A stretch of DNA of 32,000 bases from contig NZ_CP064923.1 of assembly GCF_018336915.1 (NCBI RefSeq), forward strand, positions 2,100,001 through 2,132,000, given 5' to 3'. Below the pieces are notes generated by a model that worked only from the letters and a program-made list of their open reading frames with translations, was not told the DNA's origin and searched no databases. Origin of the DNA: Acaryochloris marina S15 (lineage in GTDB: Bacteria; Cyanobacteriota; Cyanobacteriia; Thermosynechococcales; Thermosynechococcaceae). This document shows positions 9,792-32,000 of this stretch, piece after piece. Position 1 is the first letter of the stretch. Every line of letters begins with the position of its first letter. Position numbers and translations under genes: made by a program.

Positions 9792-10283
9792 TTATACAGG
9801 CACAAGTTGAACAATCAACGCACGTCGATCAAAGATTTGAACCTCACTTACCTTGCTTAAATCCTCGATGACTCTCTGCAATAAGTCGGTGGCTCGGTCA
9901 CGATGCTGGTGTTCTCGGCCTCTCAAGCGCACTTGAAACTTGACACTGTCTCCCTTTTCAAGCCACTGCAAAGCCCGACTAATGCGGACCCCATAATCAG
10001 CTTCGCCCACATTTGGGCGGAGTTTTACTTCTTTCAGAGAAGGTTTAGAGGAAGACTGCTTCTGACGCTTCTTCTGCTCATATCGATACTTGCCAAAATC
10101 CATGATCTTGGCGACTGGTGCGTCCTCTCGCTCGGAGACGACCACCAAGTCCAGTTTGGCCTGCTGGGCCAGGGAAAGCGCTTCTTGTGTATCAACAATT
10201 CCTTGCTTAGTCCCTGTCTGATCGATCAGTAGGACTTTTTTGGCTAGGATTTTGTTATTGATGGAGGGTTTTTTCAGAATAAT
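9792..10283 (-). CDS. infC: Translation initiation factor IF-3, initiating at a non-canonical ATT (AUU) codon
   Basis: The ORF-track fragment encodes the IF-3 linker and C-domain (KIMDFGKYRYEQKKRQK...VKFQVRLRGREHQH). The in-frame upstream extension encodes the conserved N-domain (KVLLIDQTGTKQGIVDTQEALSLAQQAKLDLVVVS). No ATG/GTG/TTG lies between the in-frame TGA (10305-10307) and 10148. ATT ATT at 10283/10280 is preceded by GAGG with 5-nt spacing. Confidence 0.85.
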   Translation of the reverse strand: MILKKPSINNKILAKKVLLIDQTGTKQGIVDTQEALSLAQQAKLDLVVVSEREDAPVAKIMDFGKYRYEQKKRQKQSSSKPSLKEVKLRPNVGEADYGVRISRALQWLEKGDSVKFQVRLRGREHQHRDRATDLLQRVIEDLSKVSEVQIFDRRALIVQLVPV

Positions 10284-10483
10284 GTTGACCTCAAATCTAA
10301 AAGATCAGTATAGACACATTGCGATCATAACTGACTCTTACCCCCGTTTGGTTCTATCTACAGGATGACTTAGGGTCGAGTGTCGTTTAATTTTTGCCTA
10401 CTCCAAGCTAGCGGACGGTTACCTACAGATATTGGGTATTCTAAGTTCCACTTCGAGGGCTTGAGTAACGGGCAATAGACAAG

Positions 10484-11140
10484 GTGGAGATGGGCATCTT
10501 TCTCAGATATATATTGGCTTTTATGGTCGTTGCTGGCATTGCCATTAATTGCACTCTCTATTATTCAGTCAAAATGCTTTGTCAACCAGAACGCCTATTC
10601 GAGATAGTTTCAAACATTAACGACAGAAAGTTCAGTAAGGCTTTTCATAAGCTCAATGAATCAGCCAAGTCACTTTCCTTCTCTCATGAAGCCTTTTTCC
10701 TCTTTCATGGTGTTATTGGACCACCTTTGCTCTGCACATCATGGATTAATACACAAGAAAAAACGAGGATGTTGGCCTACCTAGGAGGTGGGGTGAAGAG
10801 CATAGATTTTGTCACAAAATATAGCGATATTCGCAGCCTGACAACGGCCTCAAGCAATGAGGCAATGTTACTGCCTTATCCGCCGTCCTATTATGTCCAA
10901 GCGTTTACGGGAATTGGCGTACATGCTCAATACCACAGACACCAAGAAGCAAGGACGTTAATTGAGACTAAGCTAAAGATTGCACCCATCATGCCTCATC
11001 AGGATGTGGTGAGTGGAGCATCAGTGGCAATGAAGAGGCAAGCGAAATATATTATGCGCTTGCCCTATTGGTACTTAAGAGGCGTCTATTGGTATTTAAT
11101 CCGCAGATACAATAGGGTTAATCGGAAAATAATCTTATAA
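10484..11140 (+). CDS. Hypothetical protein with N-terminal TM segment, no recognised domain
   Basis: 218-aa ORF with a GTG start and N-terminal hydrophobic helix (FLRYILAFMVVAGIAINCTLYY). No motif recognised; coding status is moderately supported by length only. Confidence 0.45.
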   Translation: MEMGIFLRYILAFMVVAGIAINCTLYYSVKMLCQPERLFEIVSNINDRKFSKAFHKLNESAKSLSFSHEAFFLFHGVIGPPLLCTSWINTQEKTRMLAYLGGGVKSIDFVTKYSDIRSLTTASSNEAMLLPYPPSYYVQAFTGIGVHAQYHRHQEARTLIETKLKIAPIMPHQDVVSGASVAMKRQAKYIMRLPYWYLRGVYWYLIRRYNRVNRKIIL

Positions 11141-11180
11141 CAGCTTTCCAAGCTCAATAACCGCAAGGAGAAACCGATGG

Positions 11181-11355
11181 AATCACTGCATTTGCAAATG
11201 ATAGTCCTGAATGACTTTCACATTCATCGTTTCTAATTGCAGCGATCGCAACGCTGCTGCCGTCGCCCCTGCAATCGTCGTCTTATAGGCTAGGGCAGAC
11301 CGTCAAATCAAGCGACTATCAGCATGGGTATTGGCAGATGGCGTAAAATATCCAC
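11181..11355 (-). pseudogene. Decayed duplicate of the carB 3' end (last ~57 codons)
   Basis: Manual alignment to 12551-12735 shows colinear high identity, starting 2 nt outside the stop codon. In the carB frame it reads [52 protein letters not shown]. True carB reads [61 protein letters not shown]. Differences are an internal TGA (11303-11305) and two in-frame deletions (12 nt and 6 nt). Confidence 0.85.
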
Positions 11356-11457
11356 AAAACCTGAGATTTGCGCCCATTAGATTAAGCAGACAGCTAAACT
11401 TATCGTCACCAGAAAACGCATCTCAGAGACTTTAAAGACAAGTGAAGAGGGGCAAAA

Positions 11458-12537
11458 ATGAGAGAAAAAAGCTGGTATAGGGTTCTATCGAGGGCAATAA
11501 AAAACGATCTTTCTCACAGGCTTCGACGCTGGCAGTTACTGGTATTAGCCGCAGGTTTAACCTTTAGTATGGTGCTGTTGGGGACTAGTGCGATGGCCTT
11601 AGGCCGGTCGGTGATCAGCGCACAAATGGATCTTCCTCAAACTAAAGCTGAAACAGGACCAACCAATGCCGCCGTCTATCACTTTAAAGTGGGCGACTTT
11701 AAGGCCATGGTGGTGAGTGACGGTACCCTATCCTTTCCACCAAACTTCTTTGTGCCCAAAGCCGACCCCAAGGCAGTGACAGCAGTACTGAAGGAACATT
11801 TTCTCGCAACCAAAGATGTTTTAGCCCATATCAATGCCCTATACCTTGAAACCGATGAACATAAAGTTCTGATCGATACAGGCGCAGGGACTGCCTTTGG
11901 TCCCACCGCTGGTCATCTGCTGGAAAATCTTGAAGCCGCAGGTATTACTGCCCAAGAAATTGACACGGTTATTTTGACCCATGCCCACCCAGACCATATC
12001 GGCGGTATTTTAGATCCTAAGGGCCAGCTGCGCTTACCCAATGCCCAGTTCTATATCTCCCAGGCAGAGTCTGACTTTTGGATGGCGGACACCGTGGAAC
12101 TGCCCAAATCCCTATTAGACAAGGAAACAAAAGCTGGGACGATTATGGGGGCCAAGAAGAGACTAAGCGCTATTCAAGATCGGACGACCCTATTTGCCAT
12201 GGGCAGTGAGGTCATTCCCCATATTCAAGCCGTTGATTCTACGGGGCATACTCCCGGACAAGCTTCCTTCCTCATTACTTCCGGTGAAGACAGTCTACTC
12301 ACCACTGGAGACGTTTTCTTTAGCGATCCTCTTAACTTGGAGAACCCAGACTGGGAAGTGGCCTTTGATGGTGACCCTGAACAAGGTGTAATCGCTCGTC
12401 GTCAGTTACTGGAAACGGTTACTGCTCAGCGCCGTCTGCTGTTGGTGCCCCATATGCCCTTCCCAGGGCTGGGTCACGTCAGAACTCAAGGGGATGCCTA
12501 TGGGTGGGAGCCAGTTGTCTGGCGGTTTGCCGTTTAG
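11458..12537 (+). CDS. Exported MBL-fold metallo-hydrolase (lactamase_B superfamily)
   Basis: HxHxDH motif (ILTHAHPDHIGG) plus downstream His/Asp ligand candidates (STGHTPG, TTGDVF, PHMPFPG). The N-terminus has RR followed by a hydrophobic stretch ending AMALG (signal/Tat-like). A good SD (GAAGAGGGG) precedes the ATG. Confidence 0.85.
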   Translation: MREKSWYRVLSRAIKNDLSHRLRRWQLLVLAAGLTFSMVLLGTSAMALGRSVISAQMDLPQTKAETGPTNAAVYHFKVGDFKAMVVSDGTLSFPPNFFVPKADPKAVTAVLKEHFLATKDVLAHINALYLETDEHKVLIDTGAGTAFGPTAGHLLENLEAAGITAQEIDTVILTHAHPDHIGGILDPKGQLRLPNAQFYISQAESDFWMADTVELPKSLLDKETKAGTIMGAKKRLSAIQDRTTLFAMGSEVIPHIQAVDSTGHTPGQASFLITSGEDSLLTTGDVFFSDPLNLENPDWEVAFDGDPEQGVIARRQLLETVTAQRRLLLVPHMPFPGLGHVRTQGDAYGWEPVVWRFAV

Positions 12538-26262: not shown

Positions 26263-26757
26263 TTATTGAGTCTGTTTCGGATAGGTAACCAAGAATAGAG
26301 TATAGAAGAATAAAATAAAAATGCTATGAAAAATTATGTGTCCATCTAAACTATTTCTTACCCTCCAATAATTCCATATTTCATAGGAATTGCGAGCGGG
26401 GATAGCAAAGACAATCAGCTGGCAATACGTTCCATCAATCCAAGCCAATATAGTTATTCCGTAAAATATCGTTCTGAGCCAAAGAGGACAAAGAGTATTT
26501 ACTGCTTTAAAAGAATCCTGCTCACGGCTATATATGGAGATTAAATGGCAGGCAACGACGAATAATGGAGCCATGAAAAATAGTAAAACTGTACGATGCC
26601 AGTTAATTAAATCTTTTGCCTGTGAAATATTTTCTGATAGTGGCGTGATTATCTCGACATAAGTTTTTACATGATGCCACAAGAAAACTAATGTCATAGA
26701 GGACAAAAATAATCCTGTAAATCTGAGTGTTTTGATAACTCTGTTATCGGTAAGCAT
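26263..26757 (-). CDS. Hypothetical polytopic membrane protein in an AT-rich segment
   Basis: 164-aa ORF with 4-5 hydrophobic segments (e.g. FTGLFLSSMTLVFLW, LLFFMAPLFVVACHLI, IFYGITILAWI, IIFHSIFILFFYTLFLV). No motif recognised. The local sequence is visibly much more AT-rich than its neighbours. Confidence 0.5.
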   Translation of the reverse strand: MLTDNRVIKTLRFTGLFLSSMTLVFLWHHVKTYVEIITPLSENISQAKDLINWHRTVLLFFMAPLFVVACHLISIYSREQDSFKAVNTLCPLWLRTIFYGITILAWIDGTYCQLIVFAIPARNSYEIWNYWRVRNSLDGHIIFHSIFILFFYTLFLVTYPKQTQ

Positions 26758-26787
26758 TGACTTAAAATACAGAATTTCCTGTGTAGA

Positions 26788-26820
26788 CTTGCAGCAGTTT
26801 TTTGAACAGACTGCTGCAAG
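26788..26820. terminator. Hairpin just downstream of the SPFH gene
   Basis: Perfect 11-bp stem (cttgcagcagt / actgctgcaag) with an 11-nt loop, 12 nt beyond the SPFH stop. The T-run (ttttgtattt) is on the + side, so its orientation as a minus-strand terminator is imperfect. Confidence 0.45.
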
Positions 26821-26831
26821 TTTTGTATTTA

Positions 26832-27677
26832 CTATTGCTGGGAATCCACATCTCCTAAATTAAAGAGAAATGGGATGCTGTTATTGCCTTTTCCGTCCAT
26901 AACTAGAACCTTGGGCATTTGGGCACCCCCTTCACGCCAGGCGGCGATCGCTTCTTTTTGGAGTACTAGCTTGCCTCCTTGGCTTTTTAAGGTTTCAGCC
27001 AAGAGGCGCTGAGCTTCGGCTTTACCTTTGGCGCGGTTAATTTCCGCTTGGGCCTGGGCTTCGGCTTTCTTCGCATCAAAAATGGCTTGTTTGGCCTGCT
27101 GTTCAGCAATTTGCTTGGCTTCAACGGCCTCATTAAATTTAGGGCTAAAGCTGAGGTTTTCAATGGCACTGCCCTCAAAATTGATGCCAAAGCTAGATAG
27201 CCGTTTGGTCATGCCTTCGTCAAAGGCTTGACGAAGCTGCTCACGCTTAGTAATCGCTTCTTCAGCTGTATATTGAGCACTGGATGCCTTAAATGCTTCT
27301 TGGGTTAGGGATCTGACCTTAGCTGTAACTTGAGACATGGTGCCAATACGGGTTCTAGTATTGGCTAGTGGACCTGGATCGATGGTGTAGAAAACCGTTA
27401 GTTCGGCGGTGAGGTCTTGTAAATCTTTGGTTGCGGCTGCTGCGGGGAACTGCTCTTGTTGGATGTTGGCATCGTAAACATCAATCCCGCAAAATAAAGG
27501 ACATTTGAGGTTCAGACCACTTTGGACCGCTCCTTTTTGGACTTTGCCTAAGAACTTGTAAACACCAATTTGGGTGGGTCCTAGAATTTGAAAAGTATTG
27601 ACACCCACTAAAGCTATAAACAGTCCTAGCCCGGTTTTCCAATTCAACCAACCAAGAGTGTTTTTGACATTATTCAT
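26832..27677 (-). CDS. SPFH/Band-7 (prohibitin/HflC-like) membrane protein
   Basis: N-terminal TM (GLGLFIALVGVNTF), an SPFH core (GVYKFLGKV....GLNLKCPLF..I..YD...Q) and an Ala/Glu/Gln-rich coiled coil (AVEAKQIAEQQAKQAIFDAKKAEAQAQAEINRAKGKAEAQRLLAE). Confidence 0.85.
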   Translation of the reverse strand: MNNVKNTLGWLNWKTGLGLFIALVGVNTFQILGPTQIGVYKFLGKVQKGAVQSGLNLKCPLFCGIDVYDANIQQEQFPAAAATKDLQDLTAELTVFYTIDPGPLANTRTRIGTMSQVTAKVRSLTQEAFKASSAQYTAEEAITKREQLRQAFDEGMTKRLSSFGINFEGSAIENLSFSPKFNEAVEAKQIAEQQAKQAIFDAKKAEAQAQAEINRAKGKAEAQRLLAETLKSQGGKLVLQKEAIAAWREGGAQMPKVLVMDGKGNNSIPFLFNLGDVDSQQ

Positions 27678-27813
27678 TTGTTTGTCTCCAATGAACCTTC
27701 AAGGTTCAAAAGCTGTATAAATTCAATCGACGCTGACGAAGTGGCGTTTCTATGGGTTGATAAGCAAGGAAAATTATCCTTAGAAATTTGGGCTTATTCG
27801 TACTGGCCCAACG

Positions 27814-28566
27814 TTAATCTGCTGTTAGAAAAGGCTGTGATTCAAATCTTGAAAGCTTGGCAACGACTGCATTGGGGAATCCTTGCAGTTGCTGTTGGAA
27901 GCTCTGGACGGCCTGGTTATATCGCATTCGTTCTACGGCCAACCGATTTTCTGTACCAGTGATTTCATACTGGAGGTTGATATAAAGTTGGCTGGATTTT
28001 AGAGCTGAATGGTTCAGGGCATAGGTTTGAAACTGATCAATGGCCTGATCTATTTTTTCTATTGCATCCTGCTGCTGTTCAAGACTGCGGGCCTCTAAGT
28101 AGGCTTGCCGCGCCTCGATGAGTGCTGTCACTAGGATGCTTTCGTGGGTGGTGTAGGCTTGGGTGACTTTGACCAATTTAGGGATTAAATCTGCTCGTCG
28201 CTGACGTTGGTTCTCGACTTGCGCCCAAGCAGCTTCTACCTGAATTTTATGATTGGTAATCGCGTTGTATGTGGTAAAGATCCATCCTACGCCTCCCATT
28301 ATAGCAATTGAGCCGATAAGCAGCCATTGACTTAACCACCGTCTAATATACTGCCTTTTTTTCTCTTTTTTGGTGTTTTTGGCTTGAATTTCTGCAATGG
28401 CTTGAGGAATATACTTCGCTGAAATCCCTGCTTCTTCTGCTGCTGCTTCCAACTCTGCTAGTGAGTAGCGTTCTAAGTTAGCAGAGGCGTATTGAGAGGC
28501 TAACTCAAAAATTGCAGGGGCTTCATTGGCAGGAATATTTTGCTTGTCAGGTCTCATTGTTTCCAT
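27814..28566 (-). CDS. LemA-family protein with ~80-aa N-terminal extension
   Basis: TM (WLLIGSIAIMGGVGWIFTTY) followed by the LemA core (YNAI......V.AAWAQVENQRQRRADLIPKLV..........HE..........AR...). Typical LemA proteins begin at the TM; here ~80 residues precede it. Confidence 0.85.
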   Translation of the reverse strand: METMRPDKQNIPANEAPAIFELASQYASANLERYSLAELEAAAEEAGISAKYIPQAIAEIQAKNTKKEKKRQYIRRWLSQWLLIGSIAIMGGVGWIFTTYNAITNHKIQVEAAWAQVENQRQRRADLIPKLVKVTQAYTTHESILVTALIEARQAYLEARSLEQQQDAIEKIDQAIDQFQTYALNHSALKSSQLYINLQYEITGTENRLAVERMRYNQAVQSFQQQLQGFPNAVVAKLSRFESQPFLTAD

Positions 28567-28584
28567 CTCTTGAGAAATAGTGAT

Positions 28585-29841
28585 TTACCAACCCCCGCCA
28601 GCACCACCCCCGCCACTGCTTCCACCACCAAAACCACCCCCACCAGAACCCCCACTGGAACCTCCGCCACTGCCTCCCCCTCCGCTATAGCCACCGTAAC
28701 CGCCATAACTACTGGTAGAGCTAGAACGTGATCGGACTGGTTTTAGACGAGGTGTTTTCTCTTGAAATTCTTTGTAGAGGCCACAACAGACGCACATTTG
28801 CGTAATCAATTGCTTCCCACATTCTTTTTCTGTTGCTTCTTCCAAGATTTCTGTGGCATGTCGGGTGGTGTATTCCTCGCAATTAGAACATTCTCGAAAA
28901 GAAATCTGGTTCCAAATATAGGCGCGGATATGAATTGAATCTGAAGCATTAGGACAAGACGATGAACACTTCCAACCCATAAACTTAACGCTACCCATTT
29001 TTTGAGCGGTTTGTTCAATGGTGGTGAGGTGGGGCGAAAGTATTTCAGCATTCACTTTTTTGAGGCTTTTCTGGCAATAGATACAGCGGGGTGGTGTACT
29101 TCTCAAGTCATTGCTGTATTCCTCCCGAGAAACACGAGATCGTTTCCCTGGTTTCAGTAATGCTCCTTTTTTTCGATTAACCAGAAAACTCATGCCGCCT
29201 ATGAATCCACCACCGCCTAAGACCCATAAAATCCAAGAGAAGTCAGAACTGTCTTGAGATGTGTTGGGTATTGGATTAGAAGACACGGTGACTGATGAAT
29301 CAGAGCCGAGATGGGTCACTAAAAGCTGAGTCCCTTTCAAGGTTCCTTGATCAAAGTTGCCAGTCTTAAATTTGGGGAGAATCTGCTGGTCAATAATGCG
29401 ACCCACTTTGGCATCGGGCAAAATGGCTTCGATGCCATAACCAGTTTCGATTTCAACTCGACGGTCACTTTTGGAAATCAGGAATAGTACACCGTTGTCC
29501 TCCTCTTTTTTACCAATACCCCAGTGGTTAAATAGGCTGGTGGCAAAGGCTTTGGGTGAAGCTGATGGGGCTGTATTGGTAACAGTCACCACAGCAATTT
29601 CGCTACCATTCTTAGCTTCTAAATCAGTAATCAGTTGATTGAGTTTGGCTTCGGTTTGGGGACTGAGGACATTTGCCATGTCTGTAACCCAGGCTCCATT
29701 TTGCTGACGAGGATTGGGGACTTGTTTGTAGGGAACTGCCCGGGCTGTAAGGGGAAAAGTTGTGATGCCAGCAAGGCAACCACTGGCTATGGCAGCCCTA
29801 AGGCTAATACTTTTATAAGTGCTGGGATATGTCGTTTTCAT
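28585..29841 (-). CDS. TPM-domain (YgcG-type) membrane protein with Cys-rich cytoplasmic insert and Gly-rich C-terminal tail
   Basis: Signal peptide from the ATG at 29841 (MKTTYPSTYKSISLRAAIASGCLAGITTFPLTARA). The TPM domain reads VTDMANVLSPQTEAKLNQLITDLEAKNGSEIAVVTV...NGVLFLISKSDRRVEIETGYG.EAILPDA. It continues with a TM (FSWILWVLGGGGFIGGMSFLV), a segment with CxxC/CxxxC pairs, and the tail ...GGGFGGGSSGGGGAGGGW. The track start at 29955 would overlap the upstream gene. Confidence 0.85.
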   Translation of the reverse strand: MKTTYPSTYKSISLRAAIASGCLAGITTFPLTARAVPYKQVPNPRQQNGAWVTDMANVLSPQTEAKLNQLITDLEAKNGSEIAVVTVTNTAPSASPKAFATSLFNHWGIGKKEEDNGVLFLISKSDRRVEIETGYGIEAILPDAKVGRIIDQQILPKFKTGNFDQGTLKGTQLLVTHLGSDSSVTVSSNPIPNTSQDSSDFSWILWVLGGGGFIGGMSFLVNRKKGALLKPGKRSRVSREEYSNDLRSTPPRCIYCQKSLKKVNAEILSPHLTTIEQTAQKMGSVKFMGWKCSSSCPNASDSIHIRAYIWNQISFRECSNCEEYTTRHATEILEEATEKECGKQLITQMCVCCGLYKEFQEKTPRLKPVRSRSSSTSSYGGYGGYSGGGGSGGGSSGGSGGGGFGGGSSGGGGAGGGW

Positions 29842-29905
29842 TCTGGACGTTCCTGAACTGGATAAAGAGTTAAAGATCTCCCAAAAAAAACTCAATGAGG
29901 TTTTC

Positions 29906-30418
29906 CTATTTACCTCTGTCACCTCTGCTGAAATCATCTGAGTCCCCATAGTCACTGGAACTGCTGTGATAGCTATCTGAATCCTTACGGCTATGACTAT
30001 CGTTATGTCTGCTGGTTAGGCTCATCTTTACCCGTCTGATGATGCCAAGGCCAAAACCTAAGAAGAAGAGTGAAGGTAGCCACGCCCAAGGATGCCTTGG
30101 GGAAGAGCGGAGTTTACGATTGGTCGGAGTCGAATATGGAGTGGTGTCAGCTCTGAGGTGAGACTTTAGGTCAGTCTTGGAGGTTGTTGTGAGAAAACCA
30201 GTAACAGTGGGAGTGGATAGTGCCAAATAAGGATCTTGGCTGATTGCTCGCTGATGGAGTGTTGCTGATAGGGCAATCTTCTGATGAAGCCGGTGAGGCT
30301 GGGGAATTTCCTCGATGGTGGCGGGATAGGTGGCAATACCTGAAGGGTAACCACCAGCTATCGCAATTCCAGTCCCAATGCCGATGACCTGGCAAGTTCT
30401 AAACCTTATTGTTTTCAT
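29906..30418 (-). CDS. Small bitopic membrane protein, paralog of 30566..31120, Ser/Asp/His/Tyr-rich cytoplasmic tail
   Basis: Its N-terminus (MKTIRF..VIGIGTGIAIA), the blocks GYPSGIATYPATI / RAISQDPYLALS, a single TM (WAWLPSLFFLGFGLGII) and the tail SDSYHSSSSDYGDSDDF all align by eye with the upstream ORF. No known domain recognised. Confidence 0.55.
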   Translation of the reverse strand: MKTIRFRTCQVIGIGTGIAIAGGYPSGIATYPATIEEIPQPHRLHQKIALSATLHQRAISQDPYLALSTPTVTGFLTTTSKTDLKSHLRADTTPYSTPTNRKLRSSPRHPWAWLPSLFFLGFGLGIIRRVKMSLTSRHNDSHSRKDSDSYHSSSSDYGDSDDFSRGDRGK

Positions 30419-30565
30419 TTGATAGTCTCGTGAAATCTATTAGGGACAAGGTCCCTGAAGTAGTGACAACGTGGTTTTTGAACTGGGAATAAAGTGTTAG
30501 AAGGAAAGTGCTCAATTTTCTGTTGTGCTTCCCAATAGGAAAATTGAGCTGACTGGGAGAACGGC

Positions 30566-31120
30566 TTACCAATCTCCACCATCGCCGCCCCCATCACTGC
30601 TTCCACCACCGAAATCGCTACTATCGTTATAGTTCCCATAATCGCTATGGCTGCTAGAATCGCTGCTACAGTCGAACCAGGTGTTGCTGCTGCTCCGATT
30701 CCCACTGGACTGATTGGCTAGAATTCGCCAAAAAATAATGCTGCTAAAGCCTAGAATGCCGATCAGCACAATCCAGTCAGTAGAATCTTGATTCGAAGAA
30801 CGGGGTTGGCGACGATTCGAGTTTGATGCCACAGCAATCGATTGATCGATATGGAAAGAGGAAAATGCCAGTGGTTGTTGGGAAACTTGTCTTGGAGACA
30901 AACCCGTGGCTATGATTGTCGAAGGTGGAGTGAGGGCTGAATCGTAACCAATACCGATAGCAGGTTGATGATCCATTTTGGTTTCTATGACTGGATGCAA
31001 CTGAAGGGGAGCGACAGCTCCCTGGTGGACAGATGCTGCAGCGCAAAGGGGAACGGTTGCGATCGCAACAACAATACCAACACCCATAACTTTGTGGGGA
31101 GAATACTTTATAGATTTCAT
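30566..31120 (-). CDS. Small bitopic membrane protein carrying a YgcG-like Gly/Ser/Asp tail ending in Trp
   Basis: The ATG at 31120 is preceded by AGAGGA. It has a signal-like N-terminus (MKSIKYSPHKVMGVGIVVAIATVPLCAAA), a TM (WIVLIGILGFSSIIFW) and the tail SSDSSSHSDYGNYNDSSDFGGGSSDGGGDGGDW. Its last 16 codons are homologous at DNA level to the TPM gene's last 16 codons. Confidence 0.6.
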   Translation of the reverse strand: MKSIKYSPHKVMGVGIVVAIATVPLCAAASVHQGAVAPLQLHPVIETKMDHQPAIGIGYDSALTPPSTIIATGLSPRQVSQQPLAFSSFHIDQSIAVASNSNRRQPRSSNQDSTDWIVLIGILGFSSIIFWRILANQSSGNRSSSNTWFDCSSDSSSHSDYGNYNDSSDFGGGSSDGGGDGGDW

Positions 31121-31166
31121 TTGGAAATCCTCTGGCAATAAAATCAATAGGCGAACTAAATGAGTT

Positions 31167-32000
31167 CTACGACTGCTGTCGTTGAAATGTGTGCAGATTA
31201 TTTTGGCTAGACAGGACCTGACCGATAATTGGGTGATAGGTCTGCTCGTATTGGCTAACCCTATGTGTGGGATGAAATAAGGACTCTACATACTGGCGGC
31301 AGTCTGCCCGATTGAGTTGGAGGGCTGCTGGAATTTTGTGGACAAACTCACTAATGGTGGAGCAGATAAACCCAGATTTACCGTCTGCAATGATGTCTGG
31401 GACCGGGCCACAGTTCATGGCAATCACGGGGGTGCCGCAGGCCATCGATTCCAACATTGCTAGGCCAAAGGGCTCATCCCAGATAATGGGGAAGACGGCG
31501 ACGGCTGCCTTGGCGAGAAGATCTGCTTTTTGGGCATGGTTGACTTCTCCGAGATACTGAATGTGCTGGCCGTCAATGTGAGGTTTGATCTGTTGATCGA
31601 AAAAGTCTTGCTCGGAAGGGGCAATTTTGCCTGCCATTTTTAGGGGCAATCCGGCATGTTGGGCAATTGCGATCGCAAACTGCGGACCTATCTCTGGAGC
31701 CATTCGTCCGACAAAGGCAATGCAAGGCGGGGTCTGGCATTCAGCCGCAAAGGGATATCGAGATAAGTCAATGCTGTTGTGAATTGTATCAATGTAATTG
31801 AGGTGGGGCATCGTTGGTTTCTGGGCCTCACTAATGTTGATCATTGGAAGTTGAGGACAGTGTGCAAAGAGTGGGTGATTACTGACCTGATGTCCTCGTT
31901 GGACTAATCCTTCTGTTAGGACACTAATGACACTTTCTATACCGCCATGCGCTTTCCCAGAGTGGTGAAACCTGGGCGATATGCAGGGGGGCTGTTTGTA
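31167..32000 (-). CDS. GT-B fold glycosyltransferase (GT4-like), 5' end outside the window
   Basis: The frame is open from 31167 to the window edge (278 codons, checked codon by codon upstream of the track's ATG at 31844). N-terminal Gly-loop region: HGGIESVISVLTEGLVQRGHQV. C-terminal domain motifs: FVGRMAPEIGPQ, FPIIWDEPFGLAMLESMACGTPVIA, GKSGFI. Confidence 0.8.
   Translation of the reverse strand, partial: YKQPPCISPRFHHSGKAHGGIESVISVLTEGLVQRGHQVSNHPLFAHCPQLPMINISEAQKPTMPHLNYIDTIHNSIDLSRYPFAAECQTPPCIAFVGRMAPEIGPQFAIAIAQHAGLPLKMAGKIAPSEQDFFDQQIKPHIDGQHIQYLGEVNHAQKADLLAKAAVAVFPIIWDEPFGLAMLESMACGTPVIAMNCGPVPDIIADGKSGFICSTISEFVHKIPAALQLNRADCRQYVESLFHPTHRVSQYEQTYHPIIGQVLSSQNNLHTFQRQQS

Follow-up and report, generated by a model that had tools for sequence, protein, structure and literature searches.

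Five consecutive genes on the minus strand of a 32,000 nt window from the chromosome of Acaryochloris marina S15 encode two small proteins (small1 and small2), a TPM-domain protein of the YgcG type, a LemA protein and a prohibitin-type SPFH protein (Table 1). Judged by sequence comparison, the core of this cluster is the cyanobacterial form of a pan-bacterial LemA-YgcG/TPM pair, extended in Acaryochloris by prohibitin and the two mini-proteins. Few bacterial membrane proteins of unexplained function are as widespread as LemA and the YgcG-type TPM proteins. Their pairing is itself a known kind of unexplained association, and no study of it, including the combination of LemA, SPFH and TPM, was found in the searchable literature. 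Our preferred though tentative reading is that TPM, LemA and prohibitin may together serve the assembly or upkeep of membrane proteins, as a scaffold on the periplasmic or lumenal face of the membrane with the mini-proteins as modulators.

The five genes already carry annotations, namely hypothetical, YgcG family, LemA family and prohibitin family protein, and the products of four of them (the TPM protein, small1, small2 and SPFH) are identical to RefSeq or GenBank entries. What is new is the cyanobacterial variant of the pair, with an unmatched Cys-rich domain and an N-terminal LemA domain (N-domain), the apparent origin of the mini-proteins from TPM genes, and a recurrent but rare adjacency to prohibitin. 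The evidence here does not show a new type of system. A first-pass annotation, made from the DNA alone, had described five co-directional genes, spaced 147, 64, 18 and 136 bp apart and followed by a hairpin. Coordinates and open reading frames (ORFs) agree with this, and a hairpin with a 16-bp stem was found. Its domain assignments (TPM, LemA, SPFH and an upstream glycosyltransferase, GT) were all correct.

Table 1. Features of the locus, as positions in the 32,000 nt window. TM, transmembrane; AF2, AlphaFold2.
Feature	Position	Strand	Basis or remark
GT4-family GT gene	31167..32000	-	Pfam Glycos_transf_1, 2e-24; gene cut by window end
small1, 184 aa from ATG	30566-31120	-	maximal ORF reaches TTG at 31147; RefSeq 'hypothetical protein' WP_249369983.1
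small2, 170 aa	29906-30418	-	divergent small1 paralog
TPM (YgcG-type) protein, 418 aa	28585-29841	-	Pfam TPM_phosphatase, 1.2e-42; RefSeq 'YgcG family protein'
TPM domain, residues 52-175	29317-29688	-
TM segment of TPM protein, residues 203-221	29179-29235	-
Cys-rich module of TPM protein, residues ~230-365	28747-29154	-	AF2 and homolog alignment
Tail of TPM protein	28588-28716	-
LemA, 250 aa	27814-28566	-	Pfam LemA, 7.5e-35
LemA N-domain, residues 1-62	28381-28566	-
TM segment of LemA, residues 78-99	28270-28335	-
LemA bundle, residues 105-249	27820-28254	-
LemA-SPFH spacer	27678-27813	-	alignment of six Acaryochloris versions
Inverted repeat TGAACC-N5-GGTTCA	27692-27708		just upstream of GGAGA ribosome-binding site and SPFH ATG
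SPFH, prohibitin-type, 281 aa	26832-27677	-	Pfam Band_7, 5.2e-25; RefSeq 'prohibitin family protein'
Hairpin, GCAGCAG…CTGCTGC core, 16-bp stem	26785-26823		directly 3' of SPFH stop codon; ends conserved block
orf164	26263-26757		multi-TM protein, 74 bp downstream of SPFH, past the hairpin

Conservation of the TPM-LemA pair

The survey from the TPM side covers 76 species-level loci with relatives of the TPM protein that carries the Cys module and three more from contig look-ups, bringing the total to 79; 65 of the surveyed cyanobacterial loci have enough downstream sequence to be informative. The TPM gene is followed by a same-strand LemA gene in 38 of these 65, and a divergent LemA gene is present in three further loci. 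All-versus-all clustering of the ORFs from the 79 loci recovered only two widely shared families, TPM (78 loci) and LemA (44 loci). TPM genes often stand in tandem arrays, with four to six copies in loci L025, L052 and L060. On plasmids of other bacteria, LemA is followed by YgcG/TPM genes in three of four annotated LemA loci (Polaromonas, Halomonas and Phenylobacterium), and no SPFH gene is found in the plasmid LemA loci examined. The pairing of LemA with TPM pointed out in the first-pass annotation is therefore real, in cyanobacteria and on proteobacterial plasmids. The proteobacterial YgcG/TPM proteins (Polaromonas, Phenylobacterium) terminate …GGGGFGGGGASGRW, and the tail consensus of the cyanobacterial TPM family is FGGGSSGGGGAGGSW. 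By the plasmid pairs and the shared tail, pair and tail are ancient, and it is in cyanobacteria that the Cys module and the LemA N-domain were added.

SPFH after LemA was found in Acaryochloris only, in all six versions (the window, L001-L003, L077 and L078), where the block GT-(small1-small2)-TPM(-TPM)-LemA-SPFH is kept. Hence the gene order proposed to be a modular complex holds across Acaryochloris, but SPFH and the small proteins are not general to cyanobacterial LemA/TPM loci, and the five genes are not a conserved unit beyond that genus. The block GT-small1-small2-TPM-LemA-SPFH recurs in diverged Acaryochloris lineages in which small1 is only 44-46 % identical, and the flank downstream of SPFH varies (orf164 in the window and in strain MBIC11017, Tmemb_14 in L077, LysR in L078). 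Since the block recurs in diverged lineages with different downstream flanks, the arrangement is beyond chance.

Two cyanobacteria outside the genus, Waterburya (L042) and Coleofasciculus (L023), have SPFH directly after a TPM gene with the Cys module, with no LemA gene. The three SPFH-linked lineages fall in separate clades of a neighbour-joining tree of TPM proteins, and by a rough estimate the chance adjacencies expected are well under 0.1 in ~60 loci.

Within Acaryochloris, terminal hairpins of -18 to -33 kcal/mol lie 3' of the SPFH stop codon in six of six versions. A consensus scan found no terminator-like site on the minus strand in the cluster interior and no promoter-like site in the spacers, with counts at the level of shuffled sequence. 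The five genes may be co-transcribed; the signs of this are indirect, namely the lack of an internal minus-strand terminator-like site, the conserved terminal hairpin and the genus-level synteny.

Some of the loci have features of their own. The LemA-YgcG/TPM clusters of Polaromonas pPNAP02 (L160) and of a Halomonas plasmid (L161) lie inside heavy-metal/copper resistance islands with genes for P-type ATPases, heavy-metal-associated and YHS domain proteins, DUF5676 and isoprenylcysteine carboxylmethyltransferase, a setting that hints at a metal or envelope-stress context for the pair. Acaryochloris sp. IP29b_bin.148 has, besides the block locus (L077), a second contig (L060) with five tandem TPM genes followed by LemA. 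The LemA of L060 is 41 % identical to that of the window and there is no SPFH gene in the cluster; Acaryochloris thus keeps paralogous TPM/LemA systems. In MBIC11017 (L003, 9320-12185), a duplicated fragment comprising the TM segment and the start of the Cys module is fused in frame to a second TPM gene, and two opposite-strand transposase-like ORFs (10266-11514) lie between this second gene and the Cys module and tail that belong to it (11619-12185). This duplication and the transposase split indicate that the locus is structurally unstable.

Domain architecture and predicted topology

The TPM protein has the signal peptide, TPM domain, TM segment and W-ending Gly-rich tail of the YgcG type, with a Cys-rich beta domain between the TM segment and the tail, which ends FGGGSSGGGGAGGGW. 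The TPM domain (PF04536) scores 145.3 bits against a gathering cutoff of 22.1. Its AF2 model matches 2kw7, 7tbr and 5anp in Foldseek with target-normalised TM-scores of 0.84-0.87; by protein name, its matches are PG_0361, Rhom172_1776, BA41, TLP18.3 and Psb32. Identity as a Psb32 equivalog (NCBIfam NF047379) was rejected at 67.4 bits against a cutoff of 160. The TM segment is followed by seven lysine or arginine residues (K/R), and the Cys module is predicted to be cytoplasmic.

The description of the Cys-rich module as probably zinc-binding has held up. An alignment of 88 cyanobacterial TPM homologs shows no variation at C253, C256, C292, C318, C321, C350 and C353 and very little in the tail. 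The module is a conserved double-CxxC domain with four Cys knuckles (C253xxC256, C292xxxC296, C318xxC321 and C350xxC353) and probably binds zinc, with two zinc ions predicted. Modelled alone with AF2 it is compact and beta-rich (predicted local distance difference test score, pLDDT, 92.9; predicted TM-score, pTM, 0.80). Foldseek returned no PDB match at E < 0.1 for the module, whether in the full-length model or alone; the best E-value was 0.12, and the only matches were local ones of ~40-50 residues to NrdR and ZPR1. Searches of Pfam and NCBIfam at relaxed E-values likewise gave nothing above cutoff, only sub-threshold zinc-ribbon matches (best Pfam match DUF2387, 16.9 versus 25.9 bits; YheV, 15.9 versus 49 bits).

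A full phmmer scan of 1.84e9 (1.84 billion) representatives found the module in 215 clusters. Among the best 150 of these, 98 have a TPM domain, as scored with a home-built TPM hidden Markov model, and the other matches among these 150 are fragments or proteins consisting of a TM helix and the module, sometimes with the tail. P0021, P0041 and other cyanobacterial TPM homologs of ~550-590 aa contain two tandem Cys modules, each preceded by a PxGRSR juxtamembrane-like motif; the tandem copies indicate that the module acts as an independent, duplicable domain.

Residues 414-417 of the TPM protein (28588-28602) form a beta-strand in the full-length AF2 model, the rest of the tail being disordered, and the mean confidence of the last block is 54 versus 34-40 for the preceding tail. 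In the model, the terminal GGGW could dock onto a folded domain. The tail was rejected as a sorting signal of the GlyGly-CTERM, PEP-CTERM or LPXTG kind. In those signals a motif precedes a TM helix and a basic cluster, and the order here is TM segment, low-complexity stretch, then Gly-rich end.

LemA (PF04011; 120.4 bits versus a cutoff of 26.2; PDB 2ETD, E = 2.9e-23) consists of the N-domain, a basic linker, a TM segment and the helical bundle. The N-domain is conserved in 43 of 43 LemA proteins from the fetched cyanobacterial loci, with the motif IPe..aPevleLASryYa…YS..EL..Ag.E..IPaEfIqQAI. It is left uncovered in all 85 plasmid-borne LemA proteins of other phyla, in which matches begin at query residue 59 at the earliest. 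Its distribution is drawn from these 43 and 85 proteins; a word-index search found only two near-identical fragments and gives no distribution. No Pfam or NCBIfam family matched it above cutoff at relaxed E-values.

The N-domain is predicted, from the charge pattern, to be cytoplasmic and the bundle to be periplasmic or lumenal. The first-pass annotation had spoken of a cytoplasmic LemA bundle. This is probably wrong, given the charge distribution (8 K/R before the TM segment versus 1 after), the LSGC lipobox that makes Polaromonas LemA a lipoprotein, and the topology of the magnetosome protein MamQ, in which the N-terminus is cytosolic and the LemA domain lumenal (PMC3905215). MamQ and the window LemA share the layout of a cytoplasmic N-terminal segment, one TM segment and a LemA bundle on the lumenal side. 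However, the N-terminus of MamQ is unstructured and the N-domain of the window LemA is conserved and probably folded. Identity as MamQ itself (NF040966) was rejected at 45.3 bits against an equivalog cutoff of 250, and there are no mam/magnetosome genes in the window.

The SPFH protein has an N-terminal TM anchor, the SPFH/Band 7 domain (PF01145; 88.9 bits versus a cutoff of 23.6) and a coiled coil. Its significant PDB sequence matches (the top eight distinct ones) are all prohibitin 1 or 2, the best at 6.5e-27 over residues 21-249, and it is neither an HflK (32.8 versus 159 bits) nor an HflC (27.3 versus 134 bits) equivalog. It was also rejected as part of an SPFH-NfeD operon; it lies between LemA upstream and orf164 downstream, the latter with no family match, and there is no NfeD in L077 or L078. 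The prohibitin of Synechococcus 7002 and Psb32 were both labelled and enriched by lumen-targeted APEX2 (PMC7880944), which favours lumenal or periplasmic exposure of the SPFH domain.

Small1 consists of a signal peptide, a P/S/T/Q-rich ectodomain of ~85 aa, a TM helix (residues 115-133) and an S/D/G/N-rich cytoplasmic tail ending DFGGGSSDGGGDGGDW, with neither a TPM domain nor the Cys module. The ectodomain has no Pfam or NCBIfam match above cutoff at relaxed E-values. Nine homologs of 176-189 aa, down to 44 % identity, were found, apparently all from Acaryochloris; for those in Logan assemblies, this origin is taken from contigs shared with Acaryochloris-type TPM genes. The C-terminal half is best conserved (RRQPRSS, the TM helix, then …HSDYGNYSDSSDFGGGSSDGGGDGGDW), and the last 27 residues are nearly invariant in the homolog alignment. 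In MBIC11017 (L003, 6715-6748), a stop codon interrupts the small1 ortholog in frame, within the stretch that corresponds to the first 11 codons of the window gene; translation must therefore begin at a downstream Met (MGIGIG…), which leaves the signal peptide with a shorter positively charged n-region.

Small2, which has orthologs in L003, L077 and L078, has weak hydrophobic segments and a truncated tail ending …DFSRGDRGK. Thus the claim that all five proteins are membrane-anchored is borne out by TM or signal segments with K/R flanks, but less clearly for small2. The two small proteins resemble each other weakly but are real paralogs (BLASTP E = 2e-4, 26-29 % identity, collinear alignment). 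Of the proposed derivation of both tails from the TPM tail, the part that concerns small1 stands, as DFGGGSSDGGGDGGDW fits the consensus FGGGSSGGGGAGGSW; the tail of small2 is truncated.

The relationship of the small proteins to the TPM gene is confirmed by the tail of small1 and by an N-terminal match in hhalign, in which residues 1-74 of the small family align with residues 1-103 of the TPM family (probability 94 %, E = 1.4e-7), over a region that takes in the signal peptide, a possible score inflator. From this match and the shared tail, small1 and small2 appear to be degenerate TPM paralogs that have lost most of the TPM domain and the entire Cys module. By sequence features, small1 keeps the signal peptide, TM helix and FGGG…GGxW tail, and small2 the signal peptide and TM helix. 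TPM-less ORFs that combine a TM helix with an S-rich stretch and terminate in FGGGDSGGGGAGGD[WF] were seen in L012, L015, L025, L043, L047, L055 and L069, and those of L012, L025, L047, L055 and L069, for example, sit in other cyanobacterial TPM/LemA loci. Tail-bearing mini-proteins therefore recur in several lineages, though small1 and small2 are genus-specific.

A proposed membrane scaffold and the alternatives to it

If TPM, LemA and prohibitin do form a scaffold, the TPM domain, LemA bundle, prohibitin domain and mini-protein ectodomains would lie on the periplasmic or lumenal face, and the Cys module, LemA N-domain and tails on the cytoplasmic face. The TPM and LemA ectodomains would assist integral membrane complexes on the former face as an accessory or chaperone-like unit, and a prohibitin ring would corral this unit into a membrane patch. 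On the cytoplasmic side the Cys module, N-domain and tails would serve assembly or regulation, and the mini-proteins would act as TPM-less modulators through the same tail interaction. A physical complex of this kind is inferred, and a platform for membrane-protein assembly or maintenance is suggested by analogy with Psb32/TLP18.3, AscF, YdjGHI, Phb1 and MamQ. Psb32 and TLP18.3 function in repair of photosystem II (PSII; bioRxiv 10.1101/2024.10.28.620569), and AscF is a TPM subunit of the complex III-complex IV (CIII-CIV) supercomplex (PMC13456599). PspA of Bacillus subtilis is anchored by three interacting proteins, YdjG with zinc ribbons, YdjH with a TPM domain and the Band-7 protein YdjI (PMC8581546, PMC11237479). 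Cyanobacterial Phb1 co-purifies with PSII assembly intermediates or modules and FtsH (PMC9157124), and MamQ, the sole LemA member tied to a cellular process, is required for magnetosome membrane biogenesis (PMC4902198).

A more specific and improbable version makes the FGGG…GGxW tail a docking peptide that would plug single-pass proteins into a common membrane platform. Its clients would be full TPM proteins, small1-like mini-proteins and proteins with only a TM segment and the Cys module. In cyanobacteria the Cys domain and the LemA N-domain would make up this platform, joined in some lineages by the lumenal or periplasmic prohibitin ring, with the mini-proteins as evolved regulators or competitors of a machine for membrane-complex assembly and turnover. 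If true, this would give a first mechanistic handle on LemA-TPM and a link to thylakoid quality control of the prohibitin/FtsH type.

Several observations weigh against a scaffold that includes prohibitin and the small proteins. SPFH adjacency is lacking in most cyanobacterial TPM/LemA loci, and none of 80 metagenomic prohibitin loci (44 with at least 2 kb upstream) has TPM or LemA within 6 kb, in a prohibitin-centred scan whose matches are 32-42 % identical and of unnamed taxonomy, and in which divergent TPM domains could evade tblastn. With the two TPM-SPFH cases outside Acaryochloris set against these 80 loci, the SPFH link is recurrent but rare and no defining feature. The LemA-SPFH spacer is 83 % identical across the six Acaryochloris versions, and their TPM proteins are only 61-80 % identical; conservation of the spacer DNA thus exceeds the protein-level conservation of the TPM and small genes that flank it. 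The inverted repeat in the spacer is a candidate operator or may form an RNA or translational hairpin, and the conserved 136 bp may hold a separate SPFH promoter or operator. Such conservation, with the repeat beside the ribosome-binding site, leaves room for separate control of SPFH, and the promoter and terminator scan, with its shuffle-level counts, speaks neither way on a single operon. The topology of the SPFH protein is ambiguous by K/R count (2 versus 3). The small genes evolve fast and are missing in Acaryochloris L001 and L002, and the hhalign match that ties them to TPM may be inflated by the signal peptide. There is no PspA/Vipp1 or FtsH gene in the window, and the analogies stem from distant organisms and different architectures.

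These points bear most directly on the strongest alternative, which we consider doubtful: that TPM and LemA alone are a functional unit, and prohibitin, GT and the small genes are neighbours inherited within one genus. It would account for the confinement of SPFH after LemA to Acaryochloris, the prohibitin loci with no TPM or LemA nearby, the sharing of only TPM and LemA across loci, a regulatory site that the spacer may hold for SPFH, and the versions that lack small genes. However, TPM is followed directly by SPFH in two unrelated cyanobacterial clades, well above the chance estimate. In diverged lineages synteny ends immediately behind SPFH, the hairpin at that point is conserved, small1 carries the system-specific tail, and Bacillus provides a precedent for TPM, zinc-ribbon and Band-7 proteins together (PMC11237479).

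The small ORFs might instead be remnants of tandem TPM duplications, decaying towards functionless pseudogenes, but we regard this as unlikely. The vestigial N-terminal TPM homology with internal deletions seen by hhalign is what such decay would leave, and TPM genes in these loci readily duplicate and fragment, as in L003, with its TPM fragment and insertion sequence-split copy, and the arrays of four to six copies in L025, L052 and L060. The small genes also have ratios of nonsynonymous to synonymous substitution (dN/dS) above those of the other genes (small1, 0.33-0.43; small2, 0.32-0.46; TPM, 0.10-0.22; LemA, 0.17-0.19; SPFH, 0.03-0.04), were lost in L001 and L002, and include the truncated tail of small2. 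However, their frames are intact across homologs of 176-189 aa down to 44 % identity, and with dN/dS of 0.32-0.46, below 1, small1 and small2 are under purifying selection, as are all five genes, though more weakly than their neighbours. The C-terminal 27 residues of small1 are nearly invariant, and analogous TPM-less tail proteins recur in other cyanobacteria, one of them above the YxzE Pfam cutoff (a true PF25184 member near a TPM gene in Hydrococcus, L055, at 41.3 bits).

Quite unlikely is a stress module of the envelope or thylakoid like the Psp system, in which TPM/zinc-ribbon and SPFH proteins would recruit a distantly encoded Vipp1/IM30 to damaged membrane. The B. subtilis pspA-ydjGHI cluster is alike in being an operon-like group with an equal domain set, in which zinc-ribbon modules and an SPFH (Band-7) protein accompany a TPM protein whose tail is of low complexity, and the products of that cluster depend on one another for membrane localisation, that of YdjI and PspA requiring YdjG and YdjH (PMC8581546, PMC11237479). 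In addition, a Flavobacterium columnare sppA mutant under membrane stress induces both lemA and a TPM gene (PMC13236525). However, there is no PspA/Vipp1 among the larger ORFs of the window, where PspA is thus not adjacent, or among the called genes of L077 and L078, and LemA is absent from the Bacillus operon. The zinc ribbons are separate proteins in Bacillus but fused to the TPM protein here, and the domains of the two systems have no demonstrable homology (no Pfam match). YdjI is soluble, cytoplasmic and TM-less, with a C-terminal zinc ribbon, whereas the prohibitin-type SPFH protein of the window is N-terminally TM-anchored and has lumen-facing relatives (PMC7880944).

That the small tail proteins are YxzE-like bacteriocin-type peptides with immunity or export neighbours, or that the locus is an anti-phage defence island, is very improbable, since the weak PF25184 matches of small1 and small2 reach only 21.7 bits each against the 40-bit gathering cutoff (they are not members), no leader-peptide, protease or ABC-exporter genes are present, and PADLOC-DB has no family match among the six proteins. 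This 'putative bacteriocin' family is the nearest curated one for the TM helix and the Gly-rich, aromatic-ended tail of small1 and small2, but these two are about three times longer and have a signal peptide and an ectodomain.

Should the parts interact, TPM, LemA and prohibitin would be joined in one testable model of membrane maintenance; should they not, this would be an ordinary TPM-LemA locus with genus-specific neighbours. The confidently folded but unmatched Cys domain, the cytoplasmic LemA N-domain that appears alongside it, the tail motif that also marks TPM-less mini-proteins and the recurrent adjacency to a prohibitin of the PSII-assembly/FtsH-associated kind are handles for experiment. 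They make the LemA/TPM question more testable, and the locus is for this reason worth following up.

Flanking genes and comparison with known systems

The suggestion that the GT gene might belong to the same unit is right as to distance, its stop codon lying 46 bp before the small1 ATG, but the gene is a neighbour at genus level only. It is upstream in every Acaryochloris version examined (L001-L003, L077 and L078). Positions 31167-32000 of the window were compared with L078 6861-7961, L003 5889-6668 and L077 7119-7961. Relative to L078, a Logan assembly in which GT is full-length (366 aa), the window strain, MBIC11017 and bin.148 have an in-frame deletion of ~82 residues of the N-terminal Rossmann domain, and the remainder is 80-84 % identical. 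Judged by this deletion, the enzyme may have been inactivated or repurposed.

On the other side, orf164 has no Pfam, NCBIfam or PADLOC family match. It is 70 % identical in MBIC11017 and missing at the equivalent position in L077 and L078, and an exact-sequence look-up of its product found it in Logan assemblies only, with no NCBI entry. Positions 1-24000 of the window are ordinary chromosomal context, with genes for a tetratricopeptide repeat (TPR) protein, pentapeptide-repeat proteins, a diacylglycerol (DAG)-kinase/MGS fusion, an MFS transporter, NUDIX, carB, a molybdopterin oxidoreductase, MAPEG, AhpC beside LysR, HAD, a class IV aminotransferase, TrmB and atpD-atpC. No PspA/Vipp1, FtsH or NfeD is encoded in that part.

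Among known TPM proteins, Psb32/TLP18.3 share with the window protein the TPM fold (Foldseek, 8c7i at 4e-7 and 3pvh at 2e-7), the signal peptide and a cyanobacterial host. However, Psb32 lacks a LemA partner, the Cys module and an FGGG…W tail of this kind. In mycobacteria, the TPM-fold protein AscF works with a small single-TM protein, AscG (PMC13456599), and the window TPM model matches 8ovc and 6hwh at E ~3e-3. AscF is cytoplasmic, though, and small1 and small2 have no sequence relationship to this system; that the mini-proteins complement a strand is speculation.

The SPFH protein is like the prohibitin/HflKC rings, including Synechocystis Phb1 (Slr1106), in its prohibitin sequence match (residues 21-249), N-terminal anchor and coiled coil. 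It differs in having no adjoining FtsH or NfeD gene, and a linkage of prohibitin to TPM/LemA is unreported in the searchable literature.

The closest comparison is with the pan-bacterial LemA-YgcG/TPM pair (COG1704/COG1512 type). Both have adjacent, co-directional genes for LemA and at least one TPM protein, the latter with a signal peptide, TPM domain, TM segment(s) and the same aromatic-ended Gly-rich tail motif. The order is LemA then TPM on the proteobacterial plasmids but TPM then LemA in the window, and proteobacterial LemA is a lipoprotein whereas the window LemA is TM-anchored with an N-domain of 62 aa. Finally, the window TPM protein adds the Cys module of ~140 aa, and the window cluster adds prohibitin and the TPM-less mini-proteins.

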